Shown here: in pieces, positions 1-4,561 of the stretch
Position numbering within the stretch: position 1 is the first letter of the stretch
How the letters are laid out: each line of letters starts with the position of its first letter
IMG/VR virus record: IMGVR_UViG_2711768070_000016
Source of the DNA: a virus
Lineage: Duplodnaviria; Heunggongvirae; Uroviricota; Caudoviricetes
DNA length: 5,369 nucleotides
Reading direction: 5' to 3' (one strand)
Made by a program: the position numbers and the translations under genes
The notes under the pieces: model-generated
Seen by the model: the letters and a program-made list of their open reading frames with translations, nothing else
What the model was told of the DNA's origin: nothing
The model's database searches: none

Positions 1-678
1 AGCCTGAACGAGTCGGTTAAATCAGAGCAGTCACCGCGGGTGGTGCTCTGGGAAATTGACCTGACGGTGCAGGGCGGTGAGCGGTATTTTTTCTGTAATG
101 AGCTGAATGAAAAAGGGGAGCCGGTCACCTGGCAGGGGCGGCAATATCAGGCATACCCGATTGACGGCAGCGGTTTTGAGATGAACGGGAAGGGCAGCAG
201 TGCCAGACCGTCGCTGACGGTGTCCAATCTGTTTGGTCTGGTCACCGGGATGGCGGAGGACCTGCAGAGCCTGGTGGGGGCCACGGTGGTCCGCCGCCGG
301 GTGTATGCCCGTTTTCTGGATGCGGTGAATTTTGTGGCGGGCAATCCGGAAGCGGACCCGGAGCAGGAGCTGAGCGACCGCTGGGTGGTGGAGCAGATGT
401 CAGAGCTGACGGCCATGACAGCCTCGTTTGTGCTGGCAACACCGACGGAGACGGACGGAGCGCTGTTTCCTGGTCGCATCATGCTGGCGAACACCTGTAT
501 GTGGACCTACCGCTCTGATGAGTGTGGTTACACGGGCGGGGCTGTGGCGGATGAGTTCGATAAACCCACCACGGATATCCGTAAGGACAGATGCAGCAAG
601 TGCATGCGCGGGTGTGAACTGCGCAGGAATGTCGGCAATTTTGGCGGTTTCCTTTCCATTAATAAACTTTCGCAGTAA
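1..678 (+). CDS. L: Tail tip assembly protein L (lambda gpL family); 5' end lies outside the window
   Basis: Frame 1 is open from base 1 (no stop in 1-39) through TAA at 676-678. Translation (..VLWEIDLT..GGERYFFCNE..EKGEPVTWQGRQYQ..FPGRIMLANTC..ECGY..CSKC..GC..NVGNFGGFLSINKLSQ) matches lambda gpL as I remember it, including the C-terminal Cys cluster. The ORF track starts it at GTG 40 only because the true start is upstream. Confidence 0.9.
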   Translation, partial: SLNESVKSEQSPRVVLWEIDLTVQGGERYFFCNELNEKGEPVTWQGRQYQAYPIDGSGFEMNGKGSSARPSLTVSNLFGLVTGMAEDLQSLVGATVVRRRVYARFLDAVNFVAGNPEADPEQELSDRWVVEQMSELTAMTASFVLATPTETDGALFPGRIMLANTCMWTYRSDECGYTGGAVADEFDKPTTDIRKDRCSKCMRGCELRRNVGNFGGFLSINKLSQ

Positions 679-686
679 TGGATTAT

Positions 687-725
687 GCCCACCGTCAGGT
701 GGGTTTTTTATAAGGAGTAATCATG
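687..725. repeat. Left boundary repeat (hairpin + T6 + AT + AGGAGT + nn + TCATG)
   Basis: Aligns position-for-position with 2970-3008 at 31 of 39 bases; from the T-run to the ATG, 23 of 26 match. Stem differs by a compensatory change (CCCACC/GGTGGG versus CCCAGC/GCTGGG). Confidence 0.7.
688..709 (+). terminator. Intrinsic terminator-like hairpin after L (stem CCCACC/GGTGGG, loop GTCA, then T6)
   Basis: Read directly: CCCACC 688-693, loop 694-697, GGTGGG 698-703, TTTTTT 704-709. It lies between the convergent L stop (678) and the ClpP-like stop (735). Confidence 0.55.
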
Positions 726-734
726 ATTTACCCA

Positions 735-1271
735 TCAAACAACCCACCAGTTTGCCTGATTGGATGCCAGCCTTGCAGTTTTTATGGAATTAATTATGCC
801 ATGCTCAAGAGCCTTGTTAGCATCCAAAATGGTCGAGTCTGCTATCAGGGATGCCCACCTAATATGGGTTCCGATGTCGATATTGAACGTCTCAACGAAG
901 CGATCAAGATCGTTATCGAGGCATTTCCCGTACTCTCTCAATCTGGCATGGTCGGCGGCTGGGGAGGCAAAGCACCATAATAGAGGATGTAACAGGAATC
1001 TTGATAATGGGTTTGCGAAACGTTCTGAGCCAGCCAGGAAAACGATATTAGCTATGGATTCAACATTGCTTATGTTGTGAGTTCTAACGGTAACAGGGAG
1101 TGACTTAAGAAAGTTATACGCAGTAAAGCCAGCGGCAGTTTCCCCTCCCTGACTTGATATATGGATATTTAATTCAGTTGCGCCTTGAGATAATGCGGTG
1201 AGACAGTGGTTCTGAAGTTGCCCAACAGTGGCAGTGTTAACGGGGCATAAGAAATGAATTGTGTGCAGCAT
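735..1271 (-). CDS. ClpP-fold (S14-like) serine peptidase, 178 aa, lacking the N-terminal axial-loop region of canonical ClpP
   Basis: Translation contains ..IHISSQGGETAAGFTAYNFL..NVESIANIVFLAGSERFANPLSRFLLHP.., which aligns by eye to E. coli ClpP INSPGG...GQAASMGAFLLTAG...RVMIHQP with Ser and His at the equivalent positions (tentatively Ser72, His95, Asp145). Start ATG at 1271-1269 overlaps the mnt-like stop (TAATG on the minus strand). Confidence 0.7.
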   Translation of the reverse strand: MLHTIHFLCPVNTATVGQLQNHCLTALSQGATELNIHISSQGGETAAGFTAYNFLKSLPVTVRTHNISNVESIANIVFLAGSERFANPLSRFLLHPLLWCFASPAADHARLREYGKCLDNDLDRFVETFNIDIGTHIRWASLIADSTILDANKALEHGIINSIKTARLASNQANWWVV

Positions 1272-1519
1272 TATTTTTCATCCTTACCATACATGGTCTT
1301 TAGCGTCTCAAGCAGCGCCTCTTTGAATTTGTCAGCTTCTTGCTGAGCAAATGACTCAACTGACTTTGGCGACCTATCTTCATCAATCGCGGCTTGCAAA
1401 ATCATGACGATCTCGGAGTTAACAGAGCGACCATTTTTTGATGCTCTGACAGCAAGAGCCTCGCGTAAAGATTCAGGGATTCTTACCGTAGTTGGAGAAA
1501 TTGACACACCCTTTGCCAT
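1271..1519 (-). CDS. mnt: Mnt-like ribbon-helix-helix repressor (82 aa)
   Basis: MAKGVSISPTTVRIPESLREALAVRASKNGRSVNSEIV...LKTMYGKDEK has the RHH N-terminus (beta-strand then ..NGRSxNSEI..) and the length and C-terminus resembling P22 Mnt as I remember it. Start chosen at ATG 1519 (preceded by AAGGTG) rather than the upstream ATG at 1561 in the ORF track. It is divergent from arc-like, as in immI. Confidence 0.75.
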   Translation of the reverse strand: MAKGVSISPTTVRIPESLREALAVRASKNGRSVNSEIVMILQAAIDEDRSPKSVESFAQQEADKFKEALLETLKTMYGKDEK

Positions 1520-1633
1520 ATCACACCTTTGGTATTCAATTTGATAGCAAAGTGTATGCAAAAAAATTTTGACTAGATATACTCACTTTGCTATCTTTTG
1601 TATTCGAAAAGAGTTGTTTGTATGGAGGGTAAC
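1520..1633. promoter_or_regulatory. Divergent mnt / arc-ant control region with candidate operators
   Basis: 114 bp AT-rich spacer between divergent RHH genes. Possible rightward sigma70 promoter: TTGACT 1569-1574, 17 bp spacer, TATCTT 1592-1597. GGAGG 1624-1628 precedes ATG 1634. I could not find a convincing leftward -35/-10 pair. Confidence 0.45.
1543..1595. promoter_or_regulatory. 12 bp perfect inverted repeat GATAGCAAAGTG (1543-1554) / CACTTTGCTATC (1584-1595), 29 bp spacer; candidate repressor-binding sites
   Basis: Verified base by base. The right arm overlaps the putative -10 of the rightward promoter. Confidence 0.5.
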
Positions 1634-1786
1634 ATGGAGAAAGAAATAAGTAAGATTTTGGTAAGGATGCCGCAGTCGTTAAAGGATGCTATAGGTAGCA
1701 GGGCAAAGGAAGAGTGCAGGTCGTTTAACTCAGAGGTTATCAAGCGCCTGATAGACAGCTTGAAGAGAGAGGGGGTAATGGTATGA
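1634..1786 (+). CDS. arc: Arc-like ribbon-helix-helix repressor (50 aa)
   Basis: [50 protein letters not shown] resembles P22 Arc (..NGRSVNSEIYQRVMESFKKEGRIGA) in length and motif. Strong RBS GGAGG sits 5 nt upstream of ATG 1634; the ORF-track start at 1598 is a TTG and looks like an over-extension. Confidence 0.7.
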   Translation: MEKEISKILVRMPQSLKDAIGSRAKEECRSFNSEVIKRLIDSLKREGVMV

Positions 1787-1986
1787 GTAAAGAATGTTGT
1801 TTCTGCGGCATTAGCGAATCAGACGCTGATCAAACATACATTTACTCTAAAGAAACAGGTCGGATGCTGTGTAGTGACTGCGTGTTGGACATCATAAGAT
1901 ACAAGCATCTTGGATGTTCTGCCAGCATTAGCAATATAGGTGAAGTATATGAAGGGAAAGATATAACTGATAGAGCAGAAAGTTGA
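1783..1986 (+). CDS. Small standalone ClpX-type C4 zinc-binding-domain (ZBD)-like protein (67 aa)
   Basis: CCFCG..(21 aa)..[11 protein letters not shown] aligns by eye to the ClpX N-terminal ZBD (CSFCGKS...ICDECVDLCNDIIRE): Cys5/6-x-Cys8 and Cys30-x2-Cys33. Start ATG 1783 overlaps the arc-like stop (ATGA); its stop TGA 1984-1986 lies upstream of ant. Confidence 0.6.
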
Positions 1987-2048
1987 AGCCCCAACTGCGG
2001 GAACAGTCAGGGCTTCGGTTGTCAGTAAATCCGTGGAGAAAAACCAAC

Positions 2049-2951
2049 ATGAATAGTATAGCAATTTTAGAAGCAGTGAACACCTCTTACGTACCATTCA
2101 ACGGTCAGCAAATTATCACCGCCATGGCTGCCGGAGTTGCATATGTTGCGATGAAGCCAATCGTTGAAAACCTCGGAATGAGCTGGGGTACTCAGCAACA
2201 AAAACTTATGAAACAACTAGATAAGTTCAACTGTATTCATATGAATATGGTTGCTGCTGATGGAAAGCTTCGTAAGCTACTCTGCCTTCCTTTGAAGAAG
2301 TTAAATGGATGGCTGTTCAGCATCAACCCCGAGAAAGTTCGTGCTGACATCCGCGATAAACTGATTCAGTACCAGGAAGAATGCTTTACTGTGCTGCATG
2401 ACTACTGGACAAAGGGAAAGGCAGAAAATGCACGTAAGAAAACATCTGTTGATGACAGGACTCCGCTTCGTGATGCTGTAAATATGCTGGTCAGCAAAAA
2501 GCATCTAATGTACCCAGAAGCTTATGCAATGATTCATCAGCGTTTCAATGTGGAAAGTATTGAAGAGCTTGATGCATCTCAGATACCGCAAGCCGTAGAG
2601 TACATCCACAGGGTAGTGCTTGAAGGTGAGTTCATTGGCAAACAAGAGAAGAAGCTCAACGGGCTTTCCGCAAAAGAAACAGACAGCCTTGTATGGCTGT
2701 GGGATTATGCCAACCGCTCACAGGCATTGTTCCGTGAGTTGTATCCCGCATTAAAACTGATTCAGTCTGGCTATTCCGGCACATGCTACGACTACGGTCA
2801 TGAGTTCTCGTATGTTATTGGAATGGCGAGAGACGTTTTAATTAATCACACACGAGATGTTGATATCAATGAGCCAGACGGACCAACGAACCTTCTGGCA
2901 TGGGAAAGGCTTAAGAACAAAGAATTGCCGCCTTCACTGCATCACTACTAA
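2049..2951 (+). CDS. ant: Phage antirepressor Ant (P22 Ant-like, about 300 aa)
   Basis: N-terminus [44 protein letters not shown]...[25 protein letters not shown] is the P22 antirepressor N-terminal domain as I remember it. Start chosen at ATG 2049 (GGAGA upstream) rather than the TTG at 1983. Stop TAA 2949-2951. Confidence 0.85.
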
Positions 2952-2969
2952 CAGATTACCAACGAAATG

Positions 2970-2992
2970 ACCCAGCCTCGGCTGGGTTTTTT
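2970..2992 (+). terminator. Intrinsic terminator-like hairpin after ant (stem ACCCAGC/GCTGGGT, loop CTCG, then T-run)
   Basis: Read directly: stem 2970-2976 / 2981-2987, T-run 2987-2992. It is immediately followed by the K RBS AGGAG 2996-3000 and ATG 3006. Confidence 0.55.
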
Positions 2993-3008
2993 ATCAGGAG
3001 TTCTCATG
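2970..3008. repeat. Right boundary repeat (hairpin + T6 + AT + AGGAGT + nn + TCATG), ending in the K start codon
   Basis: Partner of 687-725; see the alignment described there. Confidence 0.7.
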
Positions 3009-3743
3009 CTCTATAGCAATATATTGGCACATGCCCGGCGGTGTGCGCCTGCGGAGTCGTGCGGCTTCGTGGTGAGAACGCCGGAGGGGGAGCGGTATAT
3101 CCCTTGTGTGAATATTTCCGCAGAGCCGGAGGCGTATTTTCGTATTGCGCCGGAAGACTGGCTGCGGGCAGAGATGCAGGGGGAGATTGTGGCGCTGGTC
3201 CACAGTCATCCCGGTGGTCTGCCCTGGCTGAGCGAGGCGGACCGGCGGCTGCAGATAAAGAGTGCCCTGCCCTGGTGGCTGGTCTGCCGGGGTGAAATTC
3301 ACCGGTTCCGCTGTGTGCCGCACCTGACCGGACGGCGCTTTGCGCACGGGGTGACGGACTGTTACACGCTGTTCCGGGATGCCTACCATCTGGCGGGAAT
3401 TGATATGCCGGATTTTCATCGCGGGGATGACTGGTGGCGCAACGGTCAGAACCTTTACCTGGACAATATGGCGGTCACCGGCTTTTACCGGGTGCCCCTG
3501 TCCTCTGCACAGGCGGGCGATATTCTGCTGTGCTGCTTTGGTGCTTCGGTACCGAACCATGCCGCCATATACTGCGGCAACGGTGAGCTGCTTCACCATC
3601 TGCCTGAACAACTGAGTAAACGGGAGAGGTATTCTGAAAAATGGCAACGACGAACGCATTCTGTCTGGCGTCACCGCCACTGGCACGCATCTGCCTTCAC
3701 GGGGATTTACAACGATTTGGCCGCCGCCTCAGCCTGTACGTGA
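3006..3743 (+). CDS. K: Tail assembly protein K (lambda gpK family; JAMM/MPN plus NlpC/P60 domains)
   Basis: ..HARRCAPAESCGFVV.. N-terminus, JAMM motif HSHPGGLPWLSEAD (H-x-H-x7-S-x2-D) and NlpC/P60-type Cys (GVTDCYTLF) and His (NHAAIYCG). Start at ATG 3006 with RBS AGGAG; the ORF-track start 2967 lies inside the terminator hairpin. Confidence 0.88.
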   Translation: MLYSNILAHARRCAPAESCGFVVRTPEGERYIPCVNISAEPEAYFRIAPEDWLRAEMQGEIVALVHSHPGGLPWLSEADRRLQIKSALPWWLVCRGEIHRFRCVPHLTGRRFAHGVTDCYTLFRDAYHLAGIDMPDFHRGDDWWRNGQNLYLDNMAVTGFYRVPLSSAQAGDILLCCFGASVPNHAAIYCGNGELLHHLPEQLSKRERYSEKWQRRTHSVWRHRHWHASAFTGIYNDLAAASACT

Positions 3744-4321
3744 ACACGGCAGCGGAAGCCATTCGCGCCCTGTCGATGCAGATGCCGGGCTTTCGCCGTC
3801 AGATGAACGAAGGGTGGTACCAGATACGTATTGCCGGTGAGGACACGGCACCGGAGGCGGTGTACGCCCGTCTTCACGAACAGCTGGGTGAGGGAACGGT
3901 CATCCACATTGTGCCGCGACTGGCCGGGGCCGGAAAGGGTGGACTGCAGATTGTGCTGGGGGCGGCAGCCATCGTGGGCTCTTTCTTCACTGCCGGAGGC
4001 TCGATGGCGTTATGGGGTACAGCCCTGAGTGCCGGTGGTTTTTCTGCCACCACGATGCTGTTTTCACTGGGTGCCAGTATGATTCTGGGCGGTGTGGCCC
4101 AGATGCTGGCCCCGAAGGCAAAAACACCGGATTACCGCGCAACGGATAACGGCAGACAGAACACGTATTTTTCGTCACTGGACAACATGATTGCCCAGGG
4201 TAACCCGATGCCGGTGCCTTACGGGGAAATGCTGGTTGGTTCACGACGGATATCCCAGGACATCAGCACCCGTGATGAAGGCGGGGGCGGAAAGGTCGTG
4301 GTTATCGGGCGGCAGGGGTAA
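3641..4321 (+). CDS. I: Tail assembly protein I (lambda gpI family)
   Basis: MATTNAFCLASPPLARICLHGDLQRFGRR...QIVLGAAAIVGSFFTAG...NTYFSSLDNMIAQGN matches lambda gpI as I remember it. It overlaps the 3' end of K by 103 nt in another frame. Stop TAA 4319-4321. Confidence 0.9.
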   Translation: MATTNAFCLASPPLARICLHGDLQRFGRRLSLYVNTAAEAIRALSMQMPGFRRQMNEGWYQIRIAGEDTAPEAVYARLHEQLGEGTVIHIVPRLAGAGKGGLQIVLGAAAIVGSFFTAGGSMALWGTALSAGGFSATTMLFSLGASMILGGVAQMLAPKAKTPDYRATDNGRQNTYFSSLDNMIAQGNPMPVPYGEMLVGSRRISQDISTRDEGGGGKVVVIGRQG

Positions 4322-4334
4322 AAAGAATAAAAAA

Positions 4335-4366
4335 TCCCGCAGTGCTCACGGACAGGAACTGCGGGA
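4335..4366 (-). terminator. 9 bp-stem hairpin (TCCCGCAGT / ACTGCGGGA, 14 nt loop) with the U-run on the minus strand
   Basis: Read directly. The plus strand has A-rich sequence 4321-4334 before the stem and no T-run after it, so it looks like a terminator only for leftward transcription. No convincing leftward gene precedes it. Confidence 0.3.
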
Positions 4367-4500
4367 GAGTTACGAAGATTAAGTGTAAGGAATTATTCTT
4401 ATGTCACGACAAAAAACATTAACGCAGAGAAATTATTAGCACCACAGTCAGTTTGTGAAAATGTGAAGATATTCAGAAGTTTTATTCAGTGATGATACAG

Positions 4501-4530
4501 GCATCCTCAGGGATGCCAGTTGTTTTTGTG
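4501..4530 (+). terminator. Hairpin GCATCC-TCAG-GGATGC followed by TTGTTTTTGTG; weak terminator-like element upstream of J
   Basis: Read directly: stem 4501-4506 / 4511-4516, T-rich tract 4519-4530. Confidence 0.3.
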
Positions 4531-4561
4531 CGTAACAGTTATCACAGTAAAGGGTGAGACA

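Follow-up and report, generated by a model that had tools for sequence, protein, structure and literature searches.

A P22-type immunity I cassette, probably transplanted, in the L/K interval of a lambda-like late tail operon

The DNA analysed here, hereafter the window, is a stretch of 5,369 nucleotides (nt) from IMG/VR virus record IMGVR_UViG_2711768070_000016 (Caudoviricetes), in which tail-tip genes L and K of a lambda-type late operon are separated by an AT-rich interval of 2327 nt (679-3005). An earlier note, made from the sequence alone, had described this interval as a module resembling the immunity I (immI) region of phage P22, and its bounds proved exact, with the L stop codon ending at 678 and the ATG of K at 3006. 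The contrast in composition that it reported is also borne out. The GC content of the interval is 0.437 as compared with 0.584 for L (1-678) and 0.599 for K and I together (3006-4321), and the GC content at third codon positions is lower as well, at 0.34-0.59 in the five genes of the cassette versus 0.71 in L and 0.67 in K.

The cassette genes lie on both strands, as the earlier note had stated, and their starts were set by RefSeq homologues of identical length. The two leftward genes encode a truncated ClpP-family protein of 178 amino acids (aa) (735-1271, minus strand; identified by the Pfam CLP_protease family, a relative in the PDB and its RefSeq name) and an mnt-like ribbon-helix-helix repressor of 82 aa (1271-1519, minus strand; Pfam Arc, E 1.4e-10). 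Across a divergent control region of 114 nt with 31.6% GC (1520-1633), the function of which we infer from a promoter scan and a repeat finder, the three rightward genes encode an arc-like ribbon-helix-helix repressor of 50 aa (1634-1786, plus strand; Pfam Arc, E 8.5e-12), a 67-aa protein with a CxxC...CxxC pattern (1783-1986, plus strand; a zinc-finger open reading frame (ORF) assigned to PHROG 7150) and the antirepressor Ant of 300 aa (2049-2951, plus strand; Pfam P22_AR_N, E 8.8e-45, and P22_AR_C, E 4e-25). The gene for the antisense RNA sar (1981-2048, minus strand) lies directly ahead of ant, and a terminator, t_ant (2969-2994, plus strand), follows it. All five cassette ORFs are intact, as are the surrounding tail genes. 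The content of the module had been given as mnt, arc and ant; all three are present, and to them are to be added the truncated ClpP, the 67-aa zinc-finger ORF and the sar RNA.

Likeness to P22 is strongest in the right part of the cassette, where P22 DNA is 83.4% identical over 1979-2992 (1014 nt), a segment that covers sar, ant and t_ant. The Ant protein is 84% identical to P22 Ant over 300 of 300 residues. The sar gene matches Rfam RF00262 over its full length with a score of 95.6 bits (gathering score 43; E 2.6e-20), extends to the base next to the ant ATG, covers the ribosome-binding region of ant in antisense orientation and folds with a free energy (dG) of -29.4 and a z-score of -5.2. 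A homologue of its promoter Psar is found at about 2055-2083, and both sar and Psar align with those annotated in P22, with one mismatch in Psar. In addition, gene order and orientation are those of P22 immI, with mnt leftward and arc and ant rightward; a hairpin followed by a T run stands at the outer end of the leftward operon, as at the 3' end of mnt in P22; and immI in P22 is likewise located within the late operon, just upstream of the genes for the adsorption apparatus. The identification as a P22 immI-like module by its mnt, arc and ant genes is thus upheld. That an antirepressor switch sits inside a late tail operon is also correct, though the arrangement is not unusual, P22 immI itself being in a late operon (PMC2629481).

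The remaining parts of the cassette have diverged from P22 or differ from it in content. Over 72 aa, which take in the C-terminal part, the Mnt-like protein matches P22 Mnt at 37.5% identity (E 1.9e-13), and the Arc-like protein, whose RefSeq homologue of the same length is named 'Arc family DNA-binding protein', is 39% identical to P22 Arc. With the two repressors just 37-39% identical to their P22 counterparts and no DNA similarity to P22 or its operators found in the control region, repressor and operator specificity probably differ from those of P22. Where P22 has orf59a the cassette has the truncated ClpP, and its arc and sar genes are separated by an additional ORF, that of the zinc-finger protein. 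The genes downstream are different too, being K, I and J of the host phage, a lambda-type siphovirus, and not the tailspike gene 9 of P22. Taken together, the interval together with its right junction (679-3026) is probably a P22-type immunity I cassette, the 'ant moron', transplanted between L and K of a lambda-like late tail operon.

Both edges of the cassette carry terminator-like hairpins (687-704 and 2969-2988), each followed by six T residues on the plus strand, and this claim of the earlier note is supported by a terminator scan as well as by folding. The scan of 600-3100 gave 4 sites versus 1.7 +/- 1.0 in shuffled sequences, and folding gave -13.4 kcal/mol (z -2.8) for the left hairpin and -17.0 kcal/mol (z -3.8) for the right. 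At the left junction (679-711, plus strand; delimited by the terminator scan, folding and locus comparison) the L stop codon is followed by 8 nt, TGGATTAT, then by the hairpin GCCCACC-GTCA-GGTGGGT (687-704) and by T6AT. The right hairpin, GACCCAGC-CTCG-GCTGGGTT followed by T6, is the counterpart of the terminator annotated in P22. Homology to the contexts of P22-like prophages begins at the left hairpin (688) and stops at the T run of the right one.

The right junction (2995-3026, plus strand), delimited by alignment with an empty site, includes the first seven codons of K, which are divergent. In the filled site the junction reads T6-AT-C-AGGAG-TTCTC-ATG CTC TAT AGC AAT ATA TTG GC, so that K begins MLYSNILAHA..., and in the empty site K begins ATG ACA CAG ACT GAA TCA GCG ATT CTG GC (MTQTESAILAHA...). 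The two starts have S-x-I-L-A-H-A in common with different codons, which indicates that the cassette carries a diverged 5' end of K together with its own Shine-Dalgarno sequence. As the divergence from empty sites extends to about 3019-3026, the insertion is not exactly at the L/K junction as had been proposed; the left edge and the bounds of the interval hold, and the right junction lies about seven codons inside K (MLYSNILAHA versus MTQTESAILAHA). In IMG/VR this divergent K start was found only behind an immI cassette, in 49 of 49 cases. The start of K at ATG 3006 is given by RefSeq homologues and by AGGAG at 2996-3000, and the start at 2967 in the program-made ORF list falls inside the terminator. 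Both edges of the cassette end alike, in GGGTTTTTTAT-AGGAG...ATG, and the promoter scan found no promoter-like site between t_ant and K.

Empty versions of the site are the common state among relatives. In PhiR5_1 the L stop codon is followed by 10 nt and the ATG of K, and in most other close relatives the distance is 7-12 nt. Among the 80 IMG/VR loci with an L at least 94% identical to that of the window, about 70 are empty and 7 filled. In 5426 complete Escherichia coli genomes, the empty junction of this lineage was present in 2010 and the filled right junction in 463 (~8%). Lambda copies are empty, and so are 50 of 51 Xenorhabdus-type loci. The alignment of the L-K interval that had been suggested as a check therefore yields empty-site versions as well as alternative contents at the same junction, and rather than all close relatives carrying the same genes with matching composition, about 90% of them are empty. 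With these empty sites, the foreign composition and the occurrence of the cassette in P22-like prophages, the proposal of a moron-type acquisition is supported. Presence is patchy, composition is unlike that of the neighbours and the terminators are well supported; the cassette's own promoters are consensus-level matches only. A set of 48-kb contigs in assemblies of unrelated bacteria (Neobacillus, Pseudomonas, Shewanella and others; loci L011-L022 and more) also has the empty junction, with L matching at ~80% aa identity as a lambda-type L does, and these contigs are most likely lambda control DNA left in assemblies.

The same cassette occurs in P22-like prophages of E. coli (ATCC 11775, APEC O1, S88 and phage phiv205-1) at the canonical immI position, where it is flanked by DNA-injection genes and the tailspike gene instead of L and K. 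Positions 688-1786 of the window are 98.9% identical to immI of the P22-like prophage of ATCC 11775 and positions 1984-2992 are 92-94% identical; over these prophages, identity is 94-99% for the clpP-mnt-control region-arc segment and 92-94% for sar-ant-t_ant. In most of them an unrelated 57-aa ORF occupies the arc-sar slot; the zinc-finger ORF of the window is shared only by strain 10035776-3, in which 701-2992 aligns as a single piece at 94.2% identity. The term 'ant moron' was given to the immI region of P22-like phages by Villafane et al. 2008 (PMC2629481), who considered that it may modulate read-through into the downstream tail gene, and the concept of a variable, self-expressed insert in a late operon fits the cassette described here. 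Within IMG/VR, the same 2327-nt version is present in contigs L208 and L226 with ClpP, Mnt, Arc and zinc-finger proteins that are 100% identical; none of the complete E. coli RefSeq genomes has the whole 560-3120 stretch in one piece.

Comparison of the junctions in 12 filled loci and in 40 IMG/VR loci with L available shows a fixed frame around a variable interior. The right junction does not vary among filled sites, and the left one does so by 3 point differences at most over its 33 nt (at most 1 mismatch in the 12 loci). The interiors fall into at least seven length classes (1641, 1665/6, 1725/8, 1729, 2123, 2136 and 2327 nt) that mix different clpP, mnt, arc, zinc-finger and ant alleles and always contain an immI allele. 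Where versions part from one another they do so within the cassette, with breakpoints at 711, 1363 and 2618. Shiga toxin (Stx) and other lambdoid phages (2851, 1717, YYZ-2008, Stx2a_WGPS8, O157 prophages and PhiR12) have the insert at the same site, with junctions and divergent K start unchanged. In the Stx-type versions there is neither clpP nor the zinc-finger ORF, and the mnt, arc and ant alleles are other ones, with Ant 55-57% identical; these versions share with the window only 679-711 and 2618-3019, the latter at ~90% DNA identity. PhiR12 phages share clpP with the cassette, and operators, arc and the N-terminal half of ant differ. In PhiR12_1 the shared part is 679-1363, which comprises clpP and the C-terminal 31 codons of mnt and is followed by another ribbon-helix-helix domain, operator set and arc. 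The break at 1363 (window versus locus L001) falls at mnt codon 52, the boundary between the ribbon-helix-helix DNA-binding part and the C-terminal part, so that operator specificity has been swapped and the C-terminal domain and clpP retained.

The identical junctions, the at least seven interiors and the internal breakpoints together point to one ancestral insertion followed by cassette swapping. Read from these sequence comparisons, the simplest history would be a single ancestral insertion carrying the divergent K 5' end, with the interior later exchanged by homologous recombination with immI of P22-like and other phages, and this is what the data suggest, repeated insertion at a hotspot being less likely. 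The alternative that L/K is a true insertion hotspot in E. coli, at which the immI versions arrived by independent insertions, draws on the number of interior versions at one site and on the unrelated cargo found at L/K in another clade, and we consider it improbable. All versions have in common both junctions and the divergent K 5' allele, and the breakpoints lie inside the cassette, as homologous exchange would give.

The other clade in question is a Pasteurellaceae-type lambda-like group (L ~50% identical; the nearest sequenced phages are those of Mannheimia and Pasteurella), in which 59 of 75 loci are empty and 16 have cargo between L and K. This cargo includes a HigB/HigA pair (PF05015, E 5.9e-24), a HicA/HicB pair (PF07927, E 1e-9), a TPR protein with a 126-aa partner, and a membrane-like pair of 76 aa and 251 aa of unknown function; in the loci concerned (L237, L238, L251, L311 and L173/L235/L275) it is AT-rich relative to the flanks, and none of it is immI. 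The suggestion that L/K is an integration hotspot for accessory cargo thus holds across clades and fails within the E. coli clade, where junctions are the same and the content is always immI. The L/K junction accepts morons repeatedly across clades, and the E. coli immI series is no evidence for that.

Several points weigh against the reading of the locus as a transplanted immI switch. Promoters and operators of the cassette are consensus or repeat matches only; the gene for the repressor that Ant would target lies outside the window; in the Stx-phage variant (WGPS8, E2865) sar scores below the Rfam threshold, though its hairpin is kept by compensatory changes; and on the minus strand the left hairpin lacks a T run, so that it does not account for the end of the mnt-clpP transcript. 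Defective lambdoid prophages are, moreover, common in E. coli (PMC2669165), and a decayed copy with truncated L, arc and ant was found (L212). The last two points, together with versions of the cassette that are interrupted by insertion sequences, also speak for the alternative that the cassette has lost its function as a switch and is an inert relic within a defective prophage. That explanation has a low probability in our view, given that the five ORFs are intact, that sar, Psar and t_ant are conserved, that the flanking tail genes are intact and that the same 2327-nt version recurs in the independent contigs L208 and L226. Phages with versions at L/K have been deposited as complete genomes with laboratory hosts (PhiR12_1/4/5 and the Stx phages 2851, 1717 and YYZ-2008), which makes the arrangement compatible with viability.

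A different emphasis would make the main selected effect a transcriptional one, in which terminators and convergent promoters set the amounts of K, I and J, as proposed for the dosage of the P22 tailspike, and antirepression is secondary. Both hairpins are kept in all cassette variants, and in one prophage the left hairpin is kept through a different stem with compensating changes, which speaks for such an effect. We nevertheless think it unlikely to be the principal explanation, as most relatives do without any cassette and the terminators are equally well explained as insulation of a switch; the two readings are not mutually exclusive. The proposition that L-immI-K is ancestral for the tail lineage and that empty sites are secondary precise deletions, for which the similar sequence at the two edges could in principle serve, is barely tenable, as empty sites dominate every clade sampled, lambda included, the composition of the cassette is foreign and its sequence 94-99% identical to immI of unrelated podovirus-type prophages, and empty sites carry a different K 5' allele that deletion between the edge repeats could not regenerate.

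Within the cassette, the control region (1520-1633) contains a Pant-like promoter identified as a consensus match in the promoter scan, with TTGACT (1569-1574), a spacer of 17 nt and TG-n-TATCTT (1592-1597). A perfect 12-bp inverted repeat, GATAGCAAAGTG (1543-1554) and CACTTTGCTATC (1584-1595), has its right arm overlapping the -10 element, and the two arms are candidate operators with a specificity that may differ from that of P22. Three P22-like prophages have this region with 0-2 mismatches, and a different repeat set takes its place in PhiR12_1. Three copies resembling AT(A/G)GCAAAG(G)TG were also noted at 1505-1519, 1544-1558 and 1581-1595; one of them overlaps the mnt start, and they are possible operator half-sites.

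The arc-like gene is the first gene of the rightward operon and is on the same strand as ant, with the 67-aa ORF intervening, the ATG of which overlaps the arc stop codon. The 67-aa protein belongs to PHROG 7150 (E 3.4e-50; function unknown), and the same ORF is found in locus L005. Across cassettes, three small genes alternate in the slot that separates arc from sar, namely the 67-aa protein with four cysteines (C4), a PF06689 zinc finger and the unrelated 57-aa ORF; the two alternatives to the C4 gene were located at 3492-3674 of L006 and at 4096-4269 of L004. In strain 14EC017 the slot is occupied by a ClpX-type zinc finger of PF06689 (E 7.6e-11). An assignment of the 67-aa ORF itself as a ClpX-type zinc finger was tried and rejected. 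It gave no Pfam match even at E 10 and no link through a phmmer search of the PDB, an exhaustive phmmer search over 1.8 billion representatives returned no ClpX among its matches, and single-sequence AlphaFold2 gave a mean per-residue confidence (pLDDT) of 56, with no Foldseek hit against the PDB below E 0.001. With the PF06689 protein of 14EC017 it shares the CxxCG...CxxCV spacing and the genomic position alone (BLASTP E 0.024).

The truncated ClpP gene is the second gene of the mnt operon, with its ATG overlapping the mnt stop codon (TAATG). RefSeq homologues of both the mnt-like and the ClpP-like protein have the same lengths as the proteins of the window, and that of the latter is named 'ATP-dependent Clp protease proteolytic subunit'. 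The ClpP-like ORF scores 44.4 bits against PF00574 (cut-off 20.2) and aligns end to end with its best solved relative, Pseudomonas plecoglossicida ClpP1 (PpClpP1; PDB 9UXT, E 1.6e-35). It scores below every NCBIfam ClpP equivalog cut-off, and it is therefore not a canonical ClpP. In pairwise alignments, on which the residue assignments rest, the catalytic Ser and His correspond to Ser72 and His95, and the full Ser-His-Asp triad was not found, the third position being a Ser, beside an Asp. The N-terminal axial loops that serve in docking to ClpX or ClpA are likewise absent, with the protein beginning ~20-35 residues into canonical ClpP.

PpClpP1 is itself an N-terminally truncated ClpP that forms a tetradecamer (PMC12900304), does not bind ClpX and forms a more active mixed complex with canonical ClpP (PMC12900304). 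The cassette protein resembles it in the missing N-terminal region and in two triad residues, Ser and His; at the third, PpClpP1 has Pro and the cassette protein Ser (D-S-T-I-L), and the cassette gene, unlike that of PpClpP1, is prophage-borne in an mnt operon. Relatives of the truncated ClpP were found downstream of mnt in a Pectobacterium P22-like prophage, and as solo genes on the opposite strand between lysis and terminase genes in Klebsiella prophages and beside N in Proteus prophages. In these varied prophage settings (loci L178-L185) the gene behaves as a moron in its own right, and its solo occurrence in Klebsiella and Proteus prophages suggests a prophage-expressed function of its own. 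Annotation of defence systems with PADLOC gave zero matches among the cassette proteins. On the opposite strand, an 85-aa ORF (723-980, plus strand) lies antisense to clpP, starts right after the left terminator and has a full-length match to PHROG 7758. Its Shine-Dalgarno sequence is strong, and the context (AAGGAG, 5 nt, ATG) mirrors that of K at the right junction. A comparison of synonymous and non-synonymous changes had too few differences to go on, with 8/22 versus 13/17 in the sole diverged homologue.

The presence of a ClpP-family gene and a zinc-finger ORF in one cassette raises the idea of an added layer of proteolysis. An obligate pair of ClpP and zinc finger was rejected, the two genes assorting independently among cassette versions. 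A looser version, in which the truncated, ClpX-independent ClpP (which would be expressed with Mnt in the lysogen) and the C4 protein (which would be expressed with Arc and Ant) add a proteolysis layer to the switch or the host, is a speculative reading that we regard as rather unlikely. It derives from the co-assembly of the solved ClpP relative with the canonical ClpP of its host and from the true ClpX-type finger that the C4 slot holds in sister cassettes. Under such a scheme, the two proteins may adjust how host ClpXP works, so that, for instance, Ant, a repressor or a replication protein is stabilised or removed.

Drawing on P22 immI for the regulatory and biochemical steps and on lambda late transcription for read-through with Q, the cassette would be expected to work as follows. 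In a lysogen, Mnt made from a weak leftward promoter would repress Pant, so that no antirepressor is produced, and mnt would be co-translated with the truncated ClpP. Firing of Pant, for instance upon infection of a cell without Mnt, would give a transcript of arc, the zinc-finger ORF and ant, and Ant would bind and inactivate lambdoid (c2/cI-type) repressors. Arc would then turn Pant off, and the sar antisense RNA would block the ant ribosome-binding site. The left terminator would halt non-antiterminated transcription arriving from L and thereby shield the cassette, t_ant would stop Pant transcripts ahead of K, and with its two plus-strand terminators the cassette would form a self-contained unit. 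Late in infection, RNA polymerase modified by Q would read through both terminators into K, I and J, with K translated from the Shine-Dalgarno sequence supplied with the cassette. Since both terminators stand upstream of K, I and J and the scan found no promoter-like site between t_ant and K, expression of these three genes should depend on the Q-modified polymerase.

Two further comparisons bear on this type of control. In a P22-like prophage of Pectobacterium (L184, 3216-3282) a sar gene scored 65.5 bits, and the gene downstream of it encodes a Bro-N domain protein and not a P22-type Ant, which indicates that sar-type control is not tied to one antirepressor family. The Gifsy antirepressors, as described by Lemire et al. 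2011 in the citation of that work in PMC7067206, are like the cassette ant in lying outside the lambdoid immunity region and acting on repressors in trans. According to the same citation the Gifsy antirepressor genes are repressed by LexA, whereas the cassette has its own control of the Mnt/Arc/sar type (LexA sites were not searched for).

The tail genes on either side are those of a lambda-type operon. The 3' part of tail-tip gene L (1-678, plus strand) runs off the left edge of the window and ends with TAA at 676-678; it matches Pfam Phage_tail_L (E 6.9e-93), and its counterpart is labelled tail protein L in PhiR12_1, WGPS8 and PhiR5_1. Tail-tip gene K (3006-3743, plus strand; 245 aa) has Prok-JAB (JAB/MPN, E 3.3e-16) and NLPC_P60 (E 1e-12) domains and is named K or C40 peptidase in relatives. 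Tail-tip gene I (3641-4321, plus strand; Pfam Lambda_tail_I, E 1.2e-16) overlaps the end of K, and J begins within the window, after I. The spacer between I and J (4322-4561) is 240 nt long with 40% GC and contains the hairpin GGCATCC-TCA-GGGATGCC followed by a T-rich run, which makes the spacer a candidate for another small insertion among the tail-tip genes. The effector gene nleL follows a truncated gene I in an O157:H7 prophage (L176).

The cassette belongs to a type already described, the 'ant moron' of P22 immI, and versions of it at L/K are already annotated in public records of Stx phages and of E. coli; no new mechanism is required, and as a result of genome annotation the finding is ordinary. 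A search of the open-access literature returned the paper on the 'ant moron' of P22-like phages and general surveys of Stx phages, and no paper describing immI between L and K was found. What is new here is the fixed docking frame with a variable interior, the near-identity to cassettes borne by podoviruses, the K 5' allele carried along by the cassette, the presence of a truncated ClpP gene in the mnt operon and the cross-clade evidence of other cargo at L/K.

In total, a complete regulatory cassette, from terminator to terminator, moves between unrelated virion architectures, those of P22-like podoviruses and of lambda-like siphoviruses, and once docked it is remodelled by recombination within a fixed frame. 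Antirepressors that act in trans can couple the induction of co-resident prophages. As versions of the cassette are found in Stx-converting phages and in O157 prophages, its alleles could influence which prophages, toxin-bearing ones included, are co-induced.

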